Notes under the pieces: generated by a model | The model's input: the letters and a program-made list of their open reading frames with translations, nothing else | What the model was told of the DNA's origin: nothing | Database searches by the model: none | Assembly (NCBI GenBank): GCA_964501135.1 | Contig: CAZCRI010000001.1 | Coordinates: 128,393-192,392 of the forward strand | Length of the DNA stretch: 64,000 nucleotides | Direction of reading: 5' to 3' | DNA from: an uncultured Candidatus Saccharibacteria bacterium | GTDB lineage: Bacteria > Patescibacteriota > CPR2 > UBA1875 > CAIMLA01 | Made by a program: the position numbers and the translations under genes | Part shown: piece by piece, positions 13,270-61,201 of the stretch | Layout: each line of letters opens with the position of its first letter | Position numbering within the stretch: position 1 is the stretch's first letter

Positions 13270-14312
13270 TGGAAGAAGAGAGGGATCACAAAGTAACGGT
13301 AGAGTTCTCCTTCGTTTCGATTTTTTGGGTTCTCGGGATTATTTTGAGCCTTTGGCTGTTCGTTAACTTGCAGGACATCTTGATGTCCCTAGTCTTGGCT
13401 TTTATCCTTGCTACCGCTATCGCACCAGTAATTGATTTGCTTCAGAAGAAGAAAGTACCGAGAGCACTCTCGATTACCGTAATCTATCTGCTAATTCTTG
13501 GCCTCATCGTTCTGGTTGCGCGACTTATCTTGCCACCACTTGCGCAGCAGATTACCGGGCTATTTCAGAATCGCATGAGTTATATCGACACTATCTCCGG
13601 ATATTTCGGAAGCTTTAGTGAACCGATTCGAATCAATATGACTAGTGCCGTGAATAAATTCTCCGGTTCATTTACAAGCCTTAATTATTCAGGGCTTGTA
13701 ACTGGTGCCAAAGATATCTTCTCTGGTCTGATCGATGTTATCTTGGTCTTTGTGCTTAGTTTCTACTTCTTGCTCTCCAAGAACGGGATTGAAAACACCA
13801 TCACCCAGTACGTGCCAAAGCAATTCCAAAAGAAGGTTACCTTCCTTTTTAGAAAGATTTCCAAGAAGATGAGCGCTTGGCTTCAGGGGCAGGTATTCCT
13901 TGGCCTTATCATCTTTGCGGTAAATTTTGTTGGGCTTAGTATCCTGAGAGTTGATTATGCTCTTACGCTAGCCATTATCTCAGGGCTTTTGGAAGTACTT
14001 CCAATTATCGGACCTTGGGTTTCTGGCGGCCTAGCGACAATTGTTGCTCTTACAATGTCTCCAATCCTCGGGCTTATTGTTGCCTCTTGGTATGTCCTGG
14101 TTCAGCAGCTAGAAAACCACATTATTGTTCCTATGGTGATGAAGAAATCTTTGGGGCTCAATCCAATCGCTGTGATTCTCGCCTTGCTTATCGGTGGTAA
14201 ACTACTCGGGATTCTTGGTATAATTATCTCTGTGCCAGTCGCTGCCGCTATCGGTGTATTGCTGGAAGAATTTGTGAAGATTAAGGAAACGGAGGCAATG
14301 GGTGGAAATTAG
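13269..14312 (+). CDS. AI-2E family transporter (PerM/UPF0118)
   Basis: 8 TM pattern; conserved EVLPIIGPW and GLNP segments. Confidence 0.75.
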   Translation: MEEERDHKVTVEFSFVSIFWVLGIILSLWLFVNLQDILMSLVLAFILATAIAPVIDLLQKKKVPRALSITVIYLLILGLIVLVARLILPPLAQQITGLFQNRMSYIDTISGYFGSFSEPIRINMTSAVNKFSGSFTSLNYSGLVTGAKDIFSGLIDVILVFVLSFYFLLSKNGIENTITQYVPKQFQKKVTFLFRKISKKMSAWLQGQVFLGLIIFAVNFVGLSILRVDYALTLAIISGLLEVLPIIGPWVSGGLATIVALTMSPILGLIVASWYVLVQQLENHIIVPMVMKKSLGLNPIAVILALLIGGKLLGILGIIISVPVAAAIGVLLEEFVKIKETEAMGGN

Positions 14313-14934
14313 TTATCTCGGACATTCGTGTTTTAAAGTTACAGGCAAGAAAATTTCGGTTCTCACTGACCCATTTGACCCTGCAGTTGTGGGCATCAAA
14401 CTTGGAAAGCAGGATGCTGATGTTGTTACTATCAGTCATAACCACAAGGACCATAACAATCTTTCGGTTGTAAAAAGCGAAGAGTATTTGGTTTTAGATT
14501 CACCGGGTGAGTATGAAGTAAAAGAATCAGAGTTTGTTGGGGTAGAGGCCTATCATGACGAGAATCAGGGCGCAGATCGTGGCAAGGTCACTATGTTTGC
14601 CTTTGAAGTAGACGGAATCAAGATTGCACATCTTGGTGATCTTGGTACTGAACTTACAAGCGCTCAGCTAGATTGCCTAGACGGTGTCGATATCCTAATG
14701 TTACCAGTTGGTGGGCATAAGCATATTGATGCGAAAACTGCAGTGAAGGTAGCCACTCAGATTGAGCCAAAGATTATCTTACCAATGCACTACAAGATGG
14801 TGGAAGGTTCAGAGTTTGATCCAGCAGATAACTTTTATCATGAGATGGCTGTAAAGCCTGAACTTCAGGATAAGCTAAAGATTCAAAAGAAGGATTTACC
14901 GCTAGAACTTACAGTGGTAGCACTAAAGTACTAA
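14302..14934 (+). CDS. metal-dependent hydrolase, MBL fold (UPF0173-like)
   Basis: MEISYLGHSCFKV...TISHNHKDH...HLGDLG...PVGGH. Confidence 0.75.
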   Translation: MEISYLGHSCFKVTGKKISVLTDPFDPAVVGIKLGKQDADVVTISHNHKDHNNLSVVKSEEYLVLDSPGEYEVKESEFVGVEAYHDENQGADRGKVTMFAFEVDGIKIAHLGDLGTELTSAQLDCLDGVDILMLPVGGHKHIDAKTAVKVATQIEPKIILPMHYKMVEGSEFDPADNFYHEMAVKPELQDKLKIQKKDLPLELTVVALKY

Positions 14935-15003
14935 TCCCAAACAAAATTAATTTTAGCTGTCATTCCCGCGAAAGCGGGAATCTTTTTCGTCTATCGTCGT
15001 TAC

Positions 15004-15182
15004 ATTTACCGCTTTTGGCAGCAAAAGCGGTGCAAAACTGCCGACTCCTTGCAAGATTGCCAGTGTCACTCCTCCTTCACTCTTTCTTAAAAGACAAAAC
15101 TCGTCCGCCTGTAGGCGGACTCAAACATTGCCATTTTAAGATAATCGCTTAGTTCGTCGTTCGCTGTATTTCGCAGGTCGCG
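15004..15182. repeat. copy A of an about 180-bp structured intergenic repeat (partner at 53016-53197)
   Basis: about 90% identity to copy B; hairpins CCGCTTTTG-GCAG-CAAAAGCGG and GTCCGCC-TGTA-GGCGGAC; compensatory substitutions in second hairpin. Confidence 0.7.
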
Positions 15183-15213
15183 GAGCGAGGGTATTATTCA
15201 CGGTTAACGGGAT

Positions 15214-16050
15214 TTATGCAAGAGAGACAATATTTACAAAGAGTAGTAGGAAGGCGAAACAGTTTATCAGGAGGGCCGAGCGGAACTCGAACATATGTTT
15301 TTTGCTGGTATGGAGTCCACAACGTCGAAGCTCAATGCCATCAAAGACGATTAGCATAAAGAGCATTCCCCAGAGGATGAAGTAGCCAAGTTTACTGTCG
15401 CTCACGGGGCTGAGGAGATTTAAGGCTGGCTCACTCTTGGCACCCATTACTAGGGTGGTAAAGTTGCTTGTTTGAGTAGGTGCCGTCTTTTGTCGGCCAA
15501 ACATTTGAACCATCACCGTGCTGTCCTTACCGTCGATGGTGGCAGTTCCCACAGCGACGCCAATTTCGGTAAAATTGCTGTTTAGGAGGTTCTCGCGGTG
15601 TTTGGGTGACTCGGTCCAGGCTTTTACTACCCCCTCGGCTGTACTGAAGCCCTTCCCAAGGTTTTCTCCGGCGTATGCGTAATTGTAGCCGACACTCTCG
15701 ATAAAGGCCCAGGGTTGGACTCCTGAGGGCGAAGTGTGGTCCCAATAGCTATTCTTTTGCATATCGGCGATTTTGTCATTGGCGGCTTTGTCCAGTAGGG
15801 GGCTCTCAGCAAGTACGCCGAGTGAGTTGCTGGCGCGGAAAGAATTCGTTCGTTCTATAATTTCCTTATTGTCGGGAATTTGTGCTGCCAGGCTATGCGA
15901 TGGATCAATGTAAAGCCCACCAGTAAACAGTTGAGCCGCTGCGAGGAGCGCCGATAGTAAAGCTGCCAACTTGTGATTGGTCTTTTTTATCCTTGCTTTA
16001 CAGCTTTTCTTGGTCTGCACAGCTCTAGTTGTAGTCTTTTTCCTTGCCAT
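15214..16050 (-). CDS. CAP/SCP/PR1-like (YkwD-family) extracellular protein with C-terminal TM anchor
   Basis: CAP motifs (YNYAYAGENLGKGFSTAEGVVKAWTESPKHRENLLNSNFTEIGVAV); hydrophobic C-terminus. Confidence 0.65.
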   Translation of the reverse strand: MARKKTTTRAVQTKKSCKARIKKTNHKLAALLSALLAAAQLFTGGLYIDPSHSLAAQIPDNKEIIERTNSFRASNSLGVLAESPLLDKAANDKIADMQKNSYWDHTSPSGVQPWAFIESVGYNYAYAGENLGKGFSTAEGVVKAWTESPKHRENLLNSNFTEIGVAVGTATIDGKDSTVMVQMFGRQKTAPTQTSNFTTLVMGAKSEPALNLLSPVSDSKLGYFILWGMLFMLIVFDGIELRRCGLHTSKKHMFEFRSALLINCFAFLLLFVNIVSLA

Positions 16051-16121: not shown

Positions 16122-18797
16122 TTATTTCTTTTTCTTATCGTCTTTCTTCTTGCGTTTCTTCCCGAGGATTAACCACCAGTAAGCGAGAAGTACGATAGCG
16201 ATAAGAGTTAGTAGGCCCCATATCCATCTAGCAACTCCCATCACTGTAGTATTCCACCAGTTTGGCGTATCAGTGTCACCCTTAACCTCTTCGTTGTTAC
16301 CTGAGCCTGAAGTGGTGGCAGGGGTTGTACTTGGGTTTTTGGTAGTAACTCCCGCTACAGCTCCGGCGGCTCCTTCAGTTCCTGTGGTCGAAGCAACAGG
16401 TGCGGCAGTAATCGTGAAGTTTGCTGGAACGAAAGTAATTGCATAGTTGGTATTGGCTAAAGTACCTAAAGTGATTGCGTAAGTACCCACGCCTTCTCCC
16501 TCTACTCTACTTAGAGTTCCTGCCAAGACATCGCCATCTACTAGTGAACCTGTCGTGATAGCGTAGGTTAGTGTTGGGTCAGCAGCTCCGATAACTTTTG
16601 TTTTATCGGCGGCTGTAACCGTGATTGCCTTTGCGGTAATGACACCATCAGTGACGATGAAGTTTGTTGGGACAAGATAGTTGTTGATATCGATGCCATC
16701 CAGGGAGTAAACGACGGTAATGGTTTTTCCTGTTCCGACGTTCTTGGTGTCAAAGTCAGCATCTGCCGAAACAGTAACATCCTCGTCTCCAACAACACCC
16801 GAAACCTCACCTGGTATCACGGCTGTAGCTGTTGAGCCATCATAAACCTTGGTCTTTGTAATTTCTGGGTCAGTAATGGTGAGCTGTTTCTGGGTGATGA
16901 CACCTTGATCGGTTGTGAAGTCATCAAGTCCTGTGTAATTAGAACTATCGTCCCCGGTGACTAGGTAGACCACAGTGATAGTCTTTTCTGTTCCTGCGTC
17001 TTTGGTGTCGTAATTCGCTGTAGCGCTAACAGTAACGTCGTCACCTTCGACAACACCAGAAAGATCGCCCGTAGCTACTACTGCGTCAGTAGTGCCGTCG
17101 TAAATCTTTGTGAGCTGAATGTCAGGAGCGGAGATTGATAGAGTCTTTGGAGTAATCTCTCCAAATTCCGAAATGTCATTGCCTGGAGCAATGTAATTTC
17201 CTGCATCGGCACCTTCTAGGCCATAAGCCACGGTGATGGTTTTATCACTGCCCACATTCTTGGTGTCGTAATTAGCGGTAGCAGTTGGAGTAACATCGTC
17301 TCCTTCGATAATAGTGTGTAGGCTTCCTGGAACCACTACAGCGCTTGTGTTACCATCGTATACTTTGGTATCAGTGAGGTCTGGAAGGTTTATTTCCAGC
17401 TGAAGCTTATTGATAGTTCCATCGGTGATTGTGTAGTCGGCTGGGGCACGGTACTTATCGGCGTCTGGTCCGGTAAGGGTATAGCTGACGACAATTGTTT
17501 TGCCATTACCAGCGTCTTCACTATCGTAGTTTGCTGCGGCAGTAACGCCCACAGTTTCGCCGGCAATAACTCCACTGAGTGTTCCCGCACTAACTGCCGC
17601 TACGGCATTTCCGTCATAGATTTTAACTTTTGTGATCGAAGGGTCGGTGATGGTAAGCTGCTTCTTCTGAATCTCGCCAGTTCCAACAACGTAGTCCAGA
17701 GGTTTAGTGTAGTGACCAGAATCCCATCCGGAAAGTGAATAGACAACGGTGATGGTCTTATCTGTTCCTACGTTTTTGTTGTCATAACTAGCTACTGCAT
17801 GTGCGGTAACCCAGATATTTTCGCCAGGCACCACGCCAATGAGTGACCCTGGAGTTACAGACGCTGAAGTGTTGCCATCGTACTCTTTAACCAAGGTGAT
17901 AGTAGGGTCAGTAATCGAAAGTTGTTTCTTGGTAATTACACCAGTATGAACGTGGCTGCCAGCTGGTTCGTTGTAGTTGTCAGCGTCCGCTCCCGCTAGT
18001 ACGTAGGTGTAATATAGGGTTTTCCCAGTACCAACAAACCGGTCATCATAATGAGCATTGGCAGAAACCGTTACGGTATCGCCAGGCACCACACCGCTTA
18101 ATGTGCCTGCAGCAACAGTTGCACTGGTATTGCCGTCGTATGGTTTGCTCAGAGTGATTGTTGGGCTAGAAATTGTAAGATCTTTGGGCGTGATCACACC
18201 GTCGTGTACGTGAGAGTCCACGGGTTTGATGTATTTGTAAGCATCGCTGCCCGAGATAGAGTAGACAACCGTAATGGTTTTGCCACTTCCAACATTTTTG
18301 GTGTCGTAACTGGCGGTAGCTGTAACGGTTACGTGGTCACCGTGTAGATTTGTAGAAATACTGCCAGCCGTTACGTTTGCAAGTGTCGTGCCGTTATATA
18401 TCTTTGTCTTGGTAATAGTTGGAGCATTTACAGTGAGCTGGGTTTGGGTTGCAAAGTTGGCTCGGCAATTTACGTTAGAGTAGACATGCGCAATACCGTA
18501 GGGGTTAGCCGTTGAATTATCAGCCGGACAACTGTGCCAAGTTACATCAGACCATTCAGTGAAATAGTATCCAGTATTTGGAGTAGCAGTCATAGTAGAA
18601 CTACCGCCAAATGGAACGCTCGCAGGTAGCGCTACAGCTGTACCTCCAGCACCGCCGCTAGCATTTATGGAATACAGAGTCGCTGCCATCGTAGGCGAGC
18701 CCATCAGTAGCATCTGGAGAACTAGCGAGAATATCGCGAGTCCGGACACCGGTTTCTTTAGTCTTTCTAGAATCTTCATATAGATTCTCCTTTCCAC
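16122..18797 (-). CDS. large cell-surface repeat protein: signal peptide, about 8 tandem ~90-aa Ig-like repeats with (K/V)(I/V)YDG(N/T)T motif (YDG/MBG-type), T/G-rich linker, C-terminal TM anchor and poly-K tail
   Basis: 891 aa; repeated TITKTKIYNGTT... / TLVKEYDGNTSA... / YDTKNVGxGKTITVVYS modules; C-terminal LLTLIAIVLLAYWWLILGKKRKKKDDKKKK. Confidence 0.7.
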   Translation of the reverse strand: MERRIYMKILERLKKPVSGLAIFSLVLQMLLMGSPTMAATLYSINASGGAGGTAVALPASVPFGGSSTMTATPNTGYYFTEWSDVTWHSCPADNSTANPYGIAHVYSNVNCRANFATQTQLTVNAPTITKTKIYNGTTLANVTAGSISTNLHGDHVTVTATASYDTKNVGSGKTITVVYSISGSDAYKYIKPVDSHVHDGVITPKDLTISSPTITLSKPYDGNTSATVAAGTLSGVVPGDTVTVSANAHYDDRFVGTGKTLYYTYVLAGADADNYNEPAGSHVHTGVITKKQLSITDPTITLVKEYDGNTSASVTPGSLIGVVPGENIWVTAHAVASYDNKNVGTDKTITVVYSLSGWDSGHYTKPLDYVVGTGEIQKKQLTITDPSITKVKIYDGNAVAAVSAGTLSGVIAGETVGVTAAANYDSEDAGNGKTIVVSYTLTGPDADKYRAPADYTITDGTINKLQLEINLPDLTDTKVYDGNTSAVVVPGSLHTIIEGDDVTPTATANYDTKNVGSDKTITVAYGLEGADAGNYIAPGNDISEFGEITPKTLSISAPDIQLTKIYDGTTDAVVATGDLSGVVEGDDVTVSATANYDTKDAGTEKTITVVYLVTGDDSSNYTGLDDFTTDQGVITQKQLTITDPEITKTKVYDGSTATAVIPGEVSGVVGDEDVTVSADADFDTKNVGTGKTITVVYSLDGIDINNYLVPTNFIVTDGVITAKAITVTAADKTKVIGAADPTLTYAITTGSLVDGDVLAGTLSRVEGEGVGTYAITLGTLANTNYAITFVPANFTITAAPVASTTGTEGAAGAVAGVTTKNPSTTPATTSGSGNNEEVKGDTDTPNWWNTTVMGVARWIWGLLTLIAIVLLAYWWLILGKKRKKKDDKKKK

Positions 18798-41672: not shown

Positions 41673-41749
41673 TGGTGGGTGATACAGGGCTCGAACCTGT
41701 GACCTCTGCAATGTCAATGCAACGCTCTAGCCAGCTGAGCTAATCACCC
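41673..41749 (-). tRNA. tRNA-Val (anticodon GAC), CCA encoded
   Basis: minus strand GGGTGAT...anticodon loop TTGACAT...T-loop TTCGAGC...ATCACCCACCA. Confidence 0.8.
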
Positions 41750-44595: not shown

Positions 44596-44937
44596 CTACG
44601 ACCTAAGTATAAATAGTATTAGGAATCCAAATAGGGTATAAAATCCGAGCCATAAAATACTGTATATCACAGCTCTTGTACCATCATCCTTTTTGCCGTC
44701 AAGAAACAGTAACAGAGGTTTCCCAAAAGTTAGCCCGCCAACGATAGCTGCTGACAGACAAAAGAGCAGTAGTAATACGAAGGGCGTAAGCATGTTATCT
44801 GTCTCACCAAAAATTTTTGAACCATTTTGCATTAGTTGCGATACGCCGAAAATATAGAGCGAGGCGACTGATAGGTTTCGGAATGTTATTAACAATAGTT
44901 TGTCTTTCATATATACATGATAACAAAAATATTCCAC
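44596..44937 (-). CDS. small integral membrane protein, hypothetical
   Basis: 113 aa, three hydrophobic helices. Confidence 0.45.
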   Translation of the reverse strand: MEYFCYHVYMKDKLLLITFRNLSVASLYIFGVSQLMQNGSKIFGETDNMLTPFVLLLLFCLSAAIVGGLTFGKPLLLFLDGKKDDGTRAVIYSILWLGFYTLFGFLILFILRS

Positions 44938-44953
44938 ATTTGTGGAATATTTT

Positions 44954-44998
44954 TGGTGGAGCGTAGTAGATGAAGCTTGGAACTACTACACTCCACCA
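44954..44998. repeat. palindromic repeat copy 1 (TGGTGGAGCGTAGTAG-ATGAAGCTTGGAA-CTACTACACTCCACCA), preceded by terminator-like hairpin
   Basis: near-perfect 16-bp inverted arms; shares 36-bp core with copies at 47144 and 47858. Confidence 0.8.
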
Positions 44999-46141: not shown

Positions 46142-47107
46142 ATGGATGTGTTTATACCTATTCAAATATTTGCTGATATGTTGGTTTACAATGTATTTCA
46201 CGTAGCCAAGGGGAGTGCTCTTGGTAACACTCTGAACTTTTTTGTATATGATACGATAAAAATTCTTATTTTATTAACTGTTATTATCTTCATAGTTTCC
46301 CTGATAAGGTCATATTTTCCTCCCGAGAAAACAAAGAGGCTGCTCGGCAAACACGATAAAACACTTTTGGGTAATTTCCTTGCCGCTTTACTTGGTATCG
46401 TTACTCCCTTTTGCTCGTGTTCTGCGGTTCCGTTATTTATGGGATTCGTTCAAGCCGGGATACCATTAGGGACAACATTTTCTTTTCTTATCTCATCACC
46501 GATGGTAAATGAAGTAGCCCTAGTGCTTCTTTGGGGCCTGTTCGGCTGGAAGATTGCTGTTATCTATATAGTTTCAGGAGTAGTCATCGCTACTGTGGGT
46601 GGTTGGGTTATGGGTAAGCTAAAGCTCGAAAGGTGGGTCGAAGAGTTTGTTTATAAAATGGTAGTTGGCAGTAAATCCGAAAAGGAACTATCTGTAAACG
46701 ACCGACTGGTATACGCAAAAAAATATGTGATAGAGATTGTTAGTAGTGTATGGATATACATTGTTATTGGCGTAGGTCTAGGCGCCCTGATGCATGGTTA
46801 TGCGCCAAGTGACTTTCTAGCGAGATTCGCAGGTCCAGATAATCCATTCGCAGTTCCTATGGCTGTGCTCGTAGGTATCCCTTTGTACTCAAATGCTGCA
46901 GGAACAGTACCAATCGTCTCTGTTTTGGTAGATAGGGGAATGGCGATGGGAACAGCCCTTGCTTTTATGATGTCAGTTACAGCCTTATCATTACCAGAAT
47001 TTATTATTTTGAAGAAAATACTTAAACCCAAGTTGATAGCTACTTATGCTGCTATTGTGGGACTAGGAATCATCTTCATAGGCTATCTTTTTAATATAAT
47101 ACTATAA
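46142..47107 (+). CDS. DUF318/ArsP-family permease (putative organoarsenical efflux permease)
   Basis: multi-TM; conserved TPFCSCS motif (GIVTPFCSCSAVPL). Confidence 0.6.
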   Translation: MDVFIPIQIFADMLVYNVFHVAKGSALGNTLNFFVYDTIKILILLTVIIFIVSLIRSYFPPEKTKRLLGKHDKTLLGNFLAALLGIVTPFCSCSAVPLFMGFVQAGIPLGTTFSFLISSPMVNEVALVLLWGLFGWKIAVIYIVSGVVIATVGGWVMGKLKLERWVEEFVYKMVVGSKSEKELSVNDRLVYAKKYVIEIVSSVWIYIVIGVGLGALMHGYAPSDFLARFAGPDNPFAVPMAVLVGIPLYSNAAGTVPIVSVLVDRGMAMGTALAFMMSVTALSLPEFIILKKILKPKLIATYAAIVGLGIIFIGYLFNIIL

Positions 47108-47143
47108 AACAAAAAAGGCTTTATCAAGCCTTAATAATTGTCA

Positions 47144-47177
47144 TGGTGGAGCGTAGTAGATGAAGTTTGGAACTACT
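47144..47177. repeat. palindromic repeat copy 2 (core TGGTGGAGCGTAGTAGATGAAGTTTGGAACTACT), preceded by terminator hairpin 47115-47132
   Basis: 34/36 identical to copy 1 core. Confidence 0.8.
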
Positions 47178-47183
47178 TTGAAG

Positions 47184-47783: not shown

Positions 47784-47857
47784 AGATACATTTTAACACA
47801 AAACTAGTTCAAACATTTACCTAAAACCATGATAATGCCTTTTATAAGGCATTATCA

Positions 47858-47893
47858 TGGTGGAGCGTAGTAGAAGAAGTTTGGAACTACTAC
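47858..47893. repeat. palindromic repeat copy 3 (core TGGTGGAGCGTAGTAGAAGAAGTTTGGAACTACTAC), preceded by 10-bp-stem hairpin 47831-47856
   Basis: same orientation as copies 1 and 2. Confidence 0.8.
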
Positions 47894-49225: not shown

Positions 49226-49621
49226 TGGTGGAGCTGGTGGGTACTGCCCCCACGTCCGAAAGCGAAGCCGAAATAATTTGTAACAATCATACTCGGGACT
49301 GGTAGTTTTGGTGCTGATGGTCAAGTCTCGAGAAAATCCATCGGCCTTATCCTCTAGAGTTTCAGGTTAGCTTAGAGAAGTCACTAGCCCTACCCCTGAC
49401 ATATATGGCACTCAGTAGCGAACGATTCAGGTCTCACTCACAAGAGCGGTTACTGCGTATTAGGCAGCAACTGGCGCAAAGCTGTTTACGCTGAAAGCGC
49501 TAGCAACCTTACTAACAAAGTTTTTTGCAACTATGTCTGATCTGCTGAATAACGCGGACAGACCACCGCGGATTGTATCATTTCGATTTCAAGATACCTT
49601 CGTCGAAGCTAATTCAGCCCC
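49226..49621 (-). ncRNA. ssrA: tmRNA (SsrA), standard one-piece
   Basis: minus strand 5' GGGGCUGAAUUAGCUUCGACGAAGG..., 3' ...GUGGGGGCAGUACCCACCAGCUCCACCA; acceptor pairing with G3-U70; resume GCA after AUAGUU; predicted tag (A)KNFVSKVASAFSVNSFAPVAA ending UAA; smpB 3.6 kb away. Confidence 0.8.
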
Positions 49622-51620: not shown

Positions 51621-52922
51621 ATGAAAATAGCATACCTGACCGACACATATCAGCCAGAGATAAATGGGATTGTAACTAGCATTACAAATTTCACCACTAA
51701 CCTCGCCGAAGCGGGGCACGAGATCCTGATTATCGCTCCAAAGTATAATCGTAAAAAAGATAAGCCTATCCCAAACATTACTATCAAGCGCTATCCCTCT
51801 TTTTCGTTTGCAACCAATAAGGACACCCATATTGCATATCCAGCACTGCTTGGGATTATTCGCGATCTTCGGGAGTTCAAGGCGGACATTGTTCACGTAC
51901 AAACCCCGATGAGTATTGGTGTTTCGGGGGTGATAGCAGCAAAAATTCTAGGAATCAGGTTGGTTCAGACCTATCACACCTATCTACCCGATTTTATGGT
52001 CTATGTAAGTCCTTATAATTTGCTTGGCGTAGGTAAAGCGTCCGAGAGAATCACTAGTTCTAGGGTTTGGAAAAAAATTATTGAATCTAACCTGGTTGAC
52101 AGATTCTCCGCCTTTGGTGGCAGTACGTTGAAGCGATCAGAGGTGGTACGGGCAATCAACAAACAGCTGCGTAGAACCCAGCGCTATACTGGCAGTAAGG
52201 CTATCTCAGATCGATTTGCTTGGGACTTTACTCGTATTTTGTATGGAAGGTCGGACATTGTTTTTTCACCGTCAGTGGCTCTAGCGAAACTTCTTACGCG
52301 GCACAAAGTAGGTGTCCCAAGCATCGATATGAGTAACGGGATAGAGTTTCATCACTTTTCAAAGAAAAAAGATTATCGTATTCGCAATAAGATGATTTAT
52401 GTAGGGCGTCTAGGATTAGAAAAAGGGGTTGATGTTGTCGTGAAGGCTTTTGCAATCGCCAGAGAGCAGAATCCGGCACTTCGGCTCGATATATTTGGAG
52501 AGGGTCCAGCCAAAAAGGAGCTGGAGACCCTTATTGCAAAGCTGGGACTTGGCGAAAGTGTTGGATTTGTTGGATTCGTAACTAGGGCTACTATCAAGCG
52601 TGCACTCAAACAACACGACTTTTTTGTTACCGCGAGCCCAATGGAAACCCAAGGCTTGGTGATATTAGAGGCGATGGCAGCGGGGCTGCCGGTAATAGGG
52701 GTAGATGCACTTGCTGTCCCGGAGCTTGTTCATAATGAAAAGAATGGCTATCTGGTAAAGTCCGGGAATCCAAAGGAAATGGCGGAGGCAATGTTGAAGC
52801 TTTCCGAAAGTGCAGCGAGAAATAAAAAATTCGGACAAAAGTCTCTAGAATATGCCGAAGTTCATAATATTCCGAATTGTGTTGCAAAGCTCGAAGCAGC
52901 TTACAAAGATTTGCTCTCTTAG
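51621..52922 (+). CDS. glycosyltransferase family 4 (GT-B, group 1)
   Basis: N-terminal GT4 domain KIAYLTDTYQPEINGI; C-terminal E..E motif ETQGLVILEAMAAGLPVI. Confidence 0.8.
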   Translation: MKIAYLTDTYQPEINGIVTSITNFTTNLAEAGHEILIIAPKYNRKKDKPIPNITIKRYPSFSFATNKDTHIAYPALLGIIRDLREFKADIVHVQTPMSIGVSGVIAAKILGIRLVQTYHTYLPDFMVYVSPYNLLGVGKASERITSSRVWKKIIESNLVDRFSAFGGSTLKRSEVVRAINKQLRRTQRYTGSKAISDRFAWDFTRILYGRSDIVFSPSVALAKLLTRHKVGVPSIDMSNGIEFHHFSKKKDYRIRNKMIYVGRLGLEKGVDVVVKAFAIAREQNPALRLDIFGEGPAKKELETLIAKLGLGESVGFVGFVTRATIKRALKQHDFFVTASPMETQGLVILEAMAAGLPVIGVDALAVPELVHNEKNGYLVKSGNPKEMAEAMLKLSESAARNKKFGQKSLEYAEVHNIPNCVAKLEAAYKDLLS

Positions 52923-53015
52923 CTCCACTGTCATCCCTGGTCGCAAGCCAGGGACCCAGGTCTAATTCTCTTGTCATTCCGACCGCAGCGGAGGAATCTC
53001 TTCGCACCTCCATAT

Positions 53016-53197
53016 ATTTACCGCTTTTGGCAGCAAAAGCGGTGCAAAACTGCCGACTCCTTGCAAAATCGCTAGTGTCACTCCTCCCTCACTCTTTCTT
53101 AAAAGACAAAACTCTCCCGACGGTAGCGTCGGACTCAAACATTGCCATTTTAAGATAATCGCTTAGTCCGTCGTTCGCTGTATTTTGCAGGTCGCGG
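53016..53197. repeat. copy B of about 180-bp structured intergenic repeat (partner at 15004-15182)
   Basis: see copy A; second hairpin here CCGACG-GTAG-CGTCGG. Confidence 0.7.
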
Positions 53198-53212
53198 TAG
53201 GGGAAATACCGA

Positions 53213-53671
53213 TTAGTGAACACTATCTTTCAGCTCTCGTCTGGTTTCGATATCTAGTTCTCTGTTCTTAATAACATTACGCTTATCATGCTGCTTTTTG
53301 CCACGCGCAAGAGCAATCTCGACCTTGATAAGACCATGTGAGAAATATATTTTCACTGGAACTATGGTGTAGCCTGCGGTTTGTACTTTACCGATGAGCT
53401 CAGAAATTTCTGATTTTTTTAGTAGTAATCGACGTGCTCTGGTGGGTTCCGCATTATTACCTGCCGCTGGCTTGTAAGGTGAAACGTGAGCGTTATTGAG
53501 CCAGATTTGGCTATCTTTGACACTGGCAAATGATTCTTTGAGCGAAATGTGGCCATCACGAATACTCTTCACCTCGGGGCCGATGAGTTCGATGCCGGCC
53601 TCAAAAACTTCCAAAATTTCGTAGTCGAAGTGGGCTTTTTTATTCGTAGCAATGACTTTTATGTTTTGCAT
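53213..53671 (-). CDS. smpB: SsrA-binding protein
   Basis: FDYEILEVFEAGIELIGPEVKSIR...LLLKK... Confidence 0.9.
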   Translation of the reverse strand: MQNIKVIATNKKAHFDYEILEVFEAGIELIGPEVKSIRDGHISLKESFASVKDSQIWLNNAHVSPYKPAAGNNAEPTRARRLLLKKSEISELIGKVQTAGYTIVPVKIYFSHGLIKVEIALARGKKQHDKRNVIKNRELDIETRRELKDSVH

Positions 53672-60425: not shown

Positions 60426-61092
60426 TACGCTGAAAAACCTGAATACTCGGAATTAAGGTTACTTAAGCGTGTTCCTCTACCCCTGCAACCGAATTGCCTT
60501 GTGTGCATATACTGTCGCCGGGAGATAGTGAATATAACCGATGCAAGATGCGGGATCAACACCTTTCCGAGTAGGTGGGTCTCTCGCAAACTGGGACTGG
60601 CGGAAAAGTAGGCCGCGATAACAACAGAGGGTTTGCCTCAGTGGTCCACGCCGAAAGAGGTAGGCATAGAATTAGCCGACGCAACCTCCGCCGTTTCAAA
60701 GTCCAAGTCTACTACGTACCAGCTTCGTTTCAGGTACCTCTTGTAGGCGCAAGCCCTAGTCGAAACGCTGCGTTTGCTGCTGCCCTCGGGGCGGTAGGGA
60801 TGTAAGCTCACTGGCTGGGCAAAGTTCGGTGCCAGTAAGGCCCGCATGTAGAGTTGCGTAATGTCGCCACGGAGCAGAGAGCTCACGGCGCAGAGACTCC
60901 TACACGGGAACCGATTGGTACAAATCTAGGCCGGCATGGTGACCGTTACTGTGGTCACTTTGCCCTCGTTCGCGGATTTCGAACCGCGATTACGGGGGCC
61001 ATGCCAGCCCCTTCCATAGCTACAAACGCCTTGACAGAGGCATATATATAGGTTATACTCTTTTCTTGGTGCACTTCGGTGCCCATTTTCAT

Positions 61093-61201
61093 GGGGGGTA
61101 GCTCAGTGGATAGAGCGCCGTTTGTCAGATGGTCCGATCAACGGGTCATATCATCTGACGCTCGACGGAGGTCACAGGTTCGAGCCCTGTCCCCCCCACC
61201 A
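61093..61201 (+). tRNA. tRNA-like gene with canonical acceptor, D and T arms but a 34-nt insertion in the anticodon arm; identity undetermined
   Basis: GGGGGG.TAGCTCAGTGGATAGAGC..CCGTT[41 nt]GACGG-AGGTC-ACAGGTTCGAGCCCTGT-CCCCCCC-A-CCA; insertion forms 8-bp stem GTCAGATG/CATCTGAC. Confidence 0.55.

Follow-up and report, generated by a model that had tools for sequence, protein, structure and literature searches.

Two convergent gene junctions of the stretch of DNA analysed here (the window, 64,000 nt in its full length) carry nearly the same intergenic sequence of about 180 nt, which raises the question of what kind of element this is: an inserted repeat, a duplicated small RNA gene, a block carried along by recombination or a small protein gene. 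An earlier note, made from the letters alone, had argued for selection on structure and had left the choice between a small RNA read on the minus strand and a MITE-like terminator module.

Two copies of an intergenic repeat in the window

Copy A (15004-15183) and copy B (53016-53197) are direct copies within the window. A repeat search matched 15001-15114 with 53013-53126 at 92% identity and 15116-15183 with 53130-53197 at 97%, a 2-nt indel alone separating the two blocks. Over the 180 aligned core columns, which include this indel, the copies agree at 167 of 178 positions (93.8%), and outside the apex hairpin listed below at 152 of 158 (96.2%); the figure of about 90% over about 180 bp given earlier had the duplication right and the identity somewhat low. 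Matches to a 29-nt degenerate pattern of the element were confined within the window to copies A and B, the number expected from shuffled sequence being 0.00.

Both loci are convergent intergenic gaps, as the earlier note had them. Copy A lies between a gene for an MBL-fold protein (14302-14934, plus strand) and a CAP gene (15214-16050, minus strand), and copy B between a GT4 gene (51621-52922, plus strand) and smpB (53213-53671, minus strand), the gaps measuring 287 and 279 nt at the MBL/CAP and GT4/smpB sites. Copy A starts 30 nt past the CAP stop codon and copy B 15 nt past that of smpB, each on the same strand as that gene, and no terminator was found in the window between the minus-strand stop codon and either copy. 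The two copies are made up as follows.

15004-15183, minus strand: copy A, repeat core (covariance-model match 14990-15193, minus strand, 206.5 bits); on the minus strand its 5' end is CCGCGACC at 15183 and its 3' end GCGGUAAAU at 15004
15041-15183, minus strand: copy A, long imperfect rod, 5' arm CCGCGACCUGCGAAAUACAGCG... paired with ...CUUGCAAGGAGUCGG (RNAalifold consensus, pair counts)
15103-15120, minus strand: copy A, apex hairpin GUCCGCC-UACA-GGCGGAC at the rod tip (terminator scan; -13.8 kcal/mol)
15089-15102, minus strand: copy A, U-rich tract GAGUUUUGUCUUUU, doubling as 3' arm of the upper rod
15032-15040, minus strand: copy A, linker CAGUUUUGC between rod and 3' hairpin, predicted unpaired and invariant in 5/5 copies
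15008-15031, minus strand: copy A, 3' hairpin of 10 bp, ACCGCUUUUG-CUGC-CAAAAGCGGU (-13.6 kcal/mol)
53016-53197, minus strand: copy B, repeat core (covariance-model match 53002-53207, minus strand, 213 bits)
53053-53197, minus strand: copy B, long imperfect rod (consensus fold, pair counts)
53116-53133, minus strand: copy B, apex hairpin UCCGACG-CUAC-CGUCGGG (terminator scan; -11 kcal/mol)
53101-53115, minus strand: copy B, U-rich tract AGAGUUUUGUCUUUU
53020-53043, minus strand: copy B, 3' hairpin of 10 bp (consensus fold, pair counts)

Read on the minus strand, the element runs from CCGCGACC... at its 5' terminus to ...GCGGTAAAT at its 3' terminus. A Logan contig with an identical smpB (ERR3839025_1335460, 1465-1534; L019) ends inside copy B at the point where A and B diverge, which is the signature expected of a genuine repeat in the sample. 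As practical warnings, the repeat breaks short-read assemblies, as it did this contig, and gene callers put spurious open reading frames over it. A reading of the two copies as attL and attR of a 38-kb island was rejected, the interval containing RNase P RNA, tmRNA and tRNAs and the relatives showing independent insertions.

The window also holds a three-copy repeat (44911-44989, 47101-47179 and 47815-47893), whose copies each follow closely on the 3' end of a minus-strand gene. Read on that strand, a minihelix of 16 bp (UGGUGGAG.GUAGUAG-loop-CUACUAC.CUCCACCA) precedes a terminator hairpin, and the end of the repeat resembles the 3' end of the nearby tmRNA (GCUCCACCA; 49226-49621). The copies may represent a tRNA-like 3' module or remnants of attachment-site repeats. 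Rfam reported a tRNA of 107 nt at 61092-61198 (plus strand, 43.6 bits) that ARAGORN did not report. Its 3' portion shows 91% complementarity to the tRNA-Val gene at 41673-41706, and an insertion or intron within a tRNA is one possible explanation. Inside the minus-strand gene at 16122-18797, which encodes a surface-protein-like product of 891 aa, five 84-nt units at 16712-18349, spaced by 258 or ~516 nt, indicate repeated domains of ~86 aa.

Further copies in related genomes

Three more copies were found. Two of them, recovered by a degenerate pattern search, are in JBGSPL010000001.1 of the Patescibacteria MAG JTS-AC303 (L001 and L002), and one is in the JGI metagenome contig Ga0209748_1000593 (L003), where a second pattern was used whose three other matches were due to chance. 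These copies are 80-92% identical to those of the window. Gene context differs at all five copies, which occupy unrelated, non-syntenic loci; the flanking genes at the three further ones are FtsQ-like and 1191-aa ATPase-like genes, a 187-aa gene and a U32 peptidase gene, and an RNase J gene. The L002 copy is in a divergent intergenic region, and those of L001 and L003 lie behind the terminator of the upstream gene.

A covariance model (R1) was built from the five copies and run over the window with filters off, giving no diverged copies besides A and B; in 20 further loci of relatives it found none except the cut-off fragment of copy B at the end of L019. Likewise, a 20-mer from the core had no match in a first metagenome scan, three scans of viral collections gave no true match, and BLAST searches of phage and plasmid collections returned none. 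No Rfam family matched the whole window at the gathering threshold or the three copies searched at E ≤ 10, where noise alone appeared, and our literature search found no description of structured intergenic repeats, MITEs or structured non-coding RNAs in Patescibacteria. In these searches the family was confined to a few related Patescibacteria.

A conserved and covarying fold on the minus strand

In the RNAalifold consensus a single minus-strand fold is common to the five copies, an imperfect rod of ~140 nt followed by the linker and the 10-bp hairpin. It comprises 49 pairs, 39 of them in the rod, whose paired arms are CCGCGACCUGCAAAAUACAGCG... (5') and ...CGAUUUUGCAAGGAGUCGG (3') and whose centre is weakly paired with a purine-rich 3' side. 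Neither an outer helix nor homology extending past the core was found around the copies. The perfect hairpin CCGCTTTTG-GCAG-CAAAAGCGG of the earlier note was found at 15009-15030 and 53021-53042, and its second hairpin does keep its pairing through a change of sequence, being GTCCGCC-TGTA-GGCGGAC at 15103-15120 in copy A and CCGACG-GTAG-CGTCGG at 53117-53132 in copy B on the plus strand, with a U-G closing pair possible in copy B on the minus strand only. What that description missed is that the whole element is a single long rod and that the variable hairpin is its tip. The GC-rich apex hairpin and the U-tract behind it belong to the window copies only; a short loop takes their place in L001-L003.

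Pairing is kept at 97.6% of the cells of the minus-strand consensus across the five copies. Nine pairs are altered on both sides. In the upper rod, for example, UA becomes AU or CG, and the 3' hairpin, in which compensatory changes affect 2 of the 10 pairs in other copies, shows GC turned into AU and AU into GC. Shuffled alignments gave a mean of 5.0 such pairs and reached nine in 0 of 500 cases, and the count fell to 0-2 when the partners were slid by 1-3 columns. With no more than five copies, drawn from three genomes, these covariation statistics reflect few independent events.

The same alignment distinguishes the two strands. Read on the minus strand it contains 17 G-U cells and 2 A-C cells (10 sites against 2), and 97.6% of cells pair, compared with 91.4% in the mirror structure of the opposite strand. 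Predicted folding energies come to -55 and -56.3 kcal/mol for the minus strand and to -51.7 and -51.0 kcal/mol for the opposite one. Because of this G-U excess, higher pairing and lower folding energy, the minus strand is the structured strand under the consensus model, a comparison of five sequences in which the structure itself was predicted on that strand.

Coding potential

Six-frame translations revealed no reading frame intact in all five copies, and when concatenated into one query they matched none of 5.8 billion proteins. Together with the nine compensated pairs, which no shuffle equalled, the lack of a conserved frame upholds the earlier argument for selection on structure and not on protein. 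The plus-strand frame 52877-53158 predicted over copy B had been described as not conserved in copy A; it is in fact shared up to the apex indel and shifted only after it, and 4/4 nucleotide differences between the copies in the shared part are non-synonymous.

The remaining candidate is a small minus-strand protein, for example a hydrophobic type I toxin, starting at a GTG (15069 to 14953; MTLAILQGVGSFAPLLLPKAVN...) with GGAGG close upstream, whose frame is open in four copies and has 3/3 of its A/B differences at third codon positions, all synonymous. We rejected it as very improbable, in that a 1-nt deletion shifts the frame in L003, GCG replaces the GTG start in L002, the GGAGG, badly spaced at a distance of 1 nt from the GTG, is conserved in neither L001 nor L003, the peptide tail differs wholly past the repeat border, no variation occurs at eight wobble positions of the invariant core, a sign of constraint at the nucleotide level, and the frame had no match in the protein search above.

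Empty sites in relatives

The gene junctions that hold the two window copies were compared with those of relatives. In JTS-AC303, whose SmpB is 96% identical to that of the window genome as protein and 81% as DNA, the stop codons of smpB and GT4 overlap (L007, 10456-10459), leaving zero intergenic DNA, and the two copies of that genome sit elsewhere. The smpB/GT4 gap is 4 nt in L008 and L009, and in L010 and L011 it is 220 nt made up of three REP-type hairpins, in all four cases without the element. At the MBL/CAP junction of L012 (777-817), where the MBL protein is 90% identical, the two genes are 41 nt apart and a bidirectional terminator, AAAAAACCCGACGAGAGTCGGGTTTTTT, takes up the gap; in L013 and L014 the gap measures 92 nt and the element is missing. 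The loci L020-L023 are also without a copy, L023 (10637-10673) having a terminator hairpin right after the MBL stop codon. Gene ends in the relatives are in general very compact, with classic bidirectional terminators in gaps of 40-90 nt at MBL/CAP and also after RNase J (L003, 1752-1777).

Given these empty junctions in close relatives, sequence comparison identifies the element as an insertion at both window sites, and the MITE-like reading of the earlier note thereby gains direct support. The whole intergenic region of the window has been replaced relative to the relatives, with no clean interruption; as their intergenic DNA does not align with that of the window, exact borders and a target-site duplication are unreadable. 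TA borders both ends of 2/5 copies (copy B and L001) and is not found in that position in the other three. No clear terminal inverted repeats were found, the ends sharing CCGC...GCGG only; the long inverted repeat, that is the rod, is internal, with ~40 nt of linker and hairpin beyond it. Neither a transposase nor an autonomous partner was seen in the open reading frame map of the window or in the relatives' loci examined. The possibility that the apex hairpin is a relic of an ancestral bidirectional terminator of the L012 type was also considered and set aside; the similarity is loose and L012 represents the site of the other copy.

REP-type hairpins beside the copies

Small hairpins of another kind lie next to the copies.

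14958-14984, plus strand: REP hairpin of CGTC/dRS3 type, TGTC-ATTCCCGC-GAAA-GCGGGAAT-CTT, beside copy A
52972-52999, plus strand: REP hairpin TTGTC-ATTCC...GGAAT-CT, beside copy B
52929-52955, plus strand: second REP hairpin beside copy B, TGTCA-TCCCTGG-TCGCAAG-CCAGGGA

All three GTCATYCC motifs of the 64-kb window fall within ~80 nt of the two copies. The dRS3 consensus of Neisseria consists of 20-bp hairpins ATTCCC-N8-GGGAAT (PMC1797815), which 14962-14981 (ATTCCCGCGAAAGCGGGAAT) fits exactly and of which 52976-52997 and 52934-52954 are variants. CGTC-tagged REPs have an unpaired CGTC-like head, a stem of 8-9 bp starting from AT, a loop of 4-5 nt and a short tail (PMC3733652); the TGTCAT hairpins of the window have this architecture, their head being TGTC and not CGTC. 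REP-type hairpins adjoin the copies of L001 (~765-800), L002 and L003 (1478-1498) too, and occur without the element in L010 (4792-5010 and ~4260), as in CCGTCATTCCCGCGTAGGCGGGAATCCAG and CCGTC-ATTCCCGC-GTAG-GCGGGAAT-CCAG. By sequence and architecture, the TGTCAT hairpins are a separate, known class of repeats sharing intergenic "landing zones" with the element, which suggests that the REP/dRS3 class extends into Patescibacteria. The hairpin beside copy A, together with its T-run, was scored by the terminator scan as terminator-like for the plus-strand MBL gene.

Nature and role of the element

On this evidence we favour, as the probable explanation, a non-coding structured repeat of ~180 nt that is lineage-restricted and mobile or mobilised, either MITE/ERIC-like or comparable to the RS units of a Neisseria-type mosaic. 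The element would have entered two convergent junctions of the window genome together with small REP hairpins of CGTC/dRS3 type, and its fold would be maintained by selection on a single-stranded, minus-strand form, most likely RNA. At the rod tip, the window copies have acquired a GC-rich hairpin with a U-tract behind it. Locally, the element most likely forms the 3' end of the smpB and CAP mRNAs and terminates or stabilises them, the adjacent REP hairpin at copy A possibly doing the same for the plus-strand gene. At the two junctions, where relatives have nothing or a bidirectional terminator, a composite would, judging from the context, provide two unidirectional terminators instead: a REP hairpin for one strand and, for the other, the rod with its terminator-like tip.

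The apex hairpin and its U-tract conform to the pattern of an intrinsic terminator on the minus strand, the U-run beginning 3-4 nt past the apex stem, and the scan flagged 15120-15103 and 53133-53116 as putative terminators. The earlier description of a terminator-like hairpin with a U-rich tract thus holds for both window copies and not for the family, L001-L003 lacking the feature. In the window genome the element probably acts as a minus-strand terminator module, and were the apex terminator efficient, the 3' half of the rod would go untranscribed there. Transcription, termination and any mechanism of movement are what we infer from these patterns. Since the tip is absent in three copies, two of which (L001 and L003) lie behind terminators and one of which (L002) is in a divergent region, a role as terminator or 3' untranslated region is not family-wide. 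The fold constraint and strand bias that the whole family shows more likely reflect propagation of the element or a generic RNA-level property of the rod. Conservation between genomes above the level of coding DNA could point instead to an RNA useful to the host.

The strongest competitor, which we regard as possible and clearly less probable, takes the copies for free-standing, duplicated genes of a trans-acting small RNA of ~180 nt on the minus strand, with a regulatory or protein-binding function and in one version a 6S-like rod. It accounts for the conserved fold, the covariation and the strand bias, for predicted unpaired stretches such as CAGUUUUGC that are invariant in 5/5 copies, and for a rod shape and length that recall 6S RNA; moreover, the copies of the window genome and JTS-AC303 are 84-92% identical to each other and smpB DNA only 81%, and expression behind the terminators of L001 and L003 and in the divergent region of L002 would need a promoter of the element's own. 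Against this stand the abrupt start of homology at CCGCGACC, with no conserved upstream promoter seen in the five copies, a TAAAAT inside the window copies that is not conserved elsewhere, and the minus strand's want of a terminator after the 3' hairpin. There was no Rfam match to 6S or other RNAs even at E ≤ 10, and non-syntenic positions with close relatives devoid of the element at both sites would be unusual for a housekeeping RNA.

Somewhat less probable again is a mosaic built by recombination, in the manner of NIMEs, with the element as an RS-type spacer of ~180 nt between dRS3/CGTC hairpins moved by REP-directed or homologous recombination. The clustering of all three GTCATYCC motifs of the window within ~80 nt of the copies is as it would predict, as are the exact ATTCCC-N8-GGGAAT hairpin at copy A (PMC1797815), the REP-type hairpins beside the copies in L001, L002 and L003, the L010 junction of smpB and GT4 with REP units alone, and the replacement, without clean interruption, of the whole intergenic region in the window. 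It is weakened by the REPs lying on one side only of each copy, by spacers between REP and element that are not conserved, by the lack of arrays, and by the covariation and strand bias of the block itself. We know of no need for a fold in the RS units of NIMEs.

We consider it doubtful that the element is a functional mobile structured RNA in its own right, either a non-autonomous RNA-guided or recombinase-associated module resembling the bridge RNAs of IS110 or a new rod RNA of Patescibacteria that sequesters a protein. IS110 bridge RNAs target REP-type sequences. Such a function would explain the invariant unpaired linker, a degree of conservation higher than in coding DNA, and the presence of dRS3-type REPs close to each copy.

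Comparison with known systems

Set beside MITEs, which are small (<~600 bp) and non-coding, the element has a non-coding core of ~180 nt, and its copies are dispersed (two in the window, two in JTS-AC303 and one in the JGI contig) and polymorphic in their insertion; terminal inverted repeats are not among its features. MITE-like repeats such as ERIC/IRU, Correia, RUP and RU-1/2/3 have been described in general terms (PMC3184786, PMC2759123, PMC3116915), and the element resembles them as an intergenic, non-coding imperfect palindrome of 100-200 nt, present or absent at orthologous sites of related genomes as in the ERIC/Correia type. It is also likened to that type in forming a long RNA stem if transcribed, which can affect termination or mRNA stability. 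It differs in showing no sequence relationship to these repeats, in lacking clear terminal inverted repeats or a clear TA duplication, in its extra 3' hairpin outside the rod, in its very low copy number, so far two per 64 kb, and in its host, a reduced Patescibacteria genome.

With the NIMEs of Neisseria (dRS3-RS-dRS3) the element shares a block of the 50-150-nt class beside 20-bp ATTCCC-N8-GGGAAT hairpins and a mosaic makeup that varies among relatives. In contrast to them, the flanking hairpins are on one side only and form no arrays, the block itself is a conserved, covarying fold, and the phylum is unrelated. Compensatory changes in stems are a hallmark of REPINs (PMC3116915), and, like these and the palindromes of IS200/IS605, the element is a small non-autonomous repeat with a strand-specific hairpin structure; unlike REPINs it has no inverted REP doublet and no GTAG head, and its rod is far longer and less regular. 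Neither RAYT nor TnpA genes were seen in the window or in the relatives' loci examined. The likeness to 6S RNA lies in the length of ~180 nt, the rod shape and the weakly paired centre, and is offset by the lack of an Rfam 6S match at the gathering threshold or at E ≤ 10, the extra 3' hairpin, the non-syntenic positions and the absence from the relatives' sites.

The genomes of Patescibacteria (CPR) are very small and contain little intergenic DNA. The present case shows that even such tiny genomes acquire small structured insertions at gene ends and tolerate or use them. Should the rod prove to be a functional RNA, it would constitute a new RNA family specific to CPR; on present evidence, the element is a new family of a known kind, an ordinary type of element in an unusual host.
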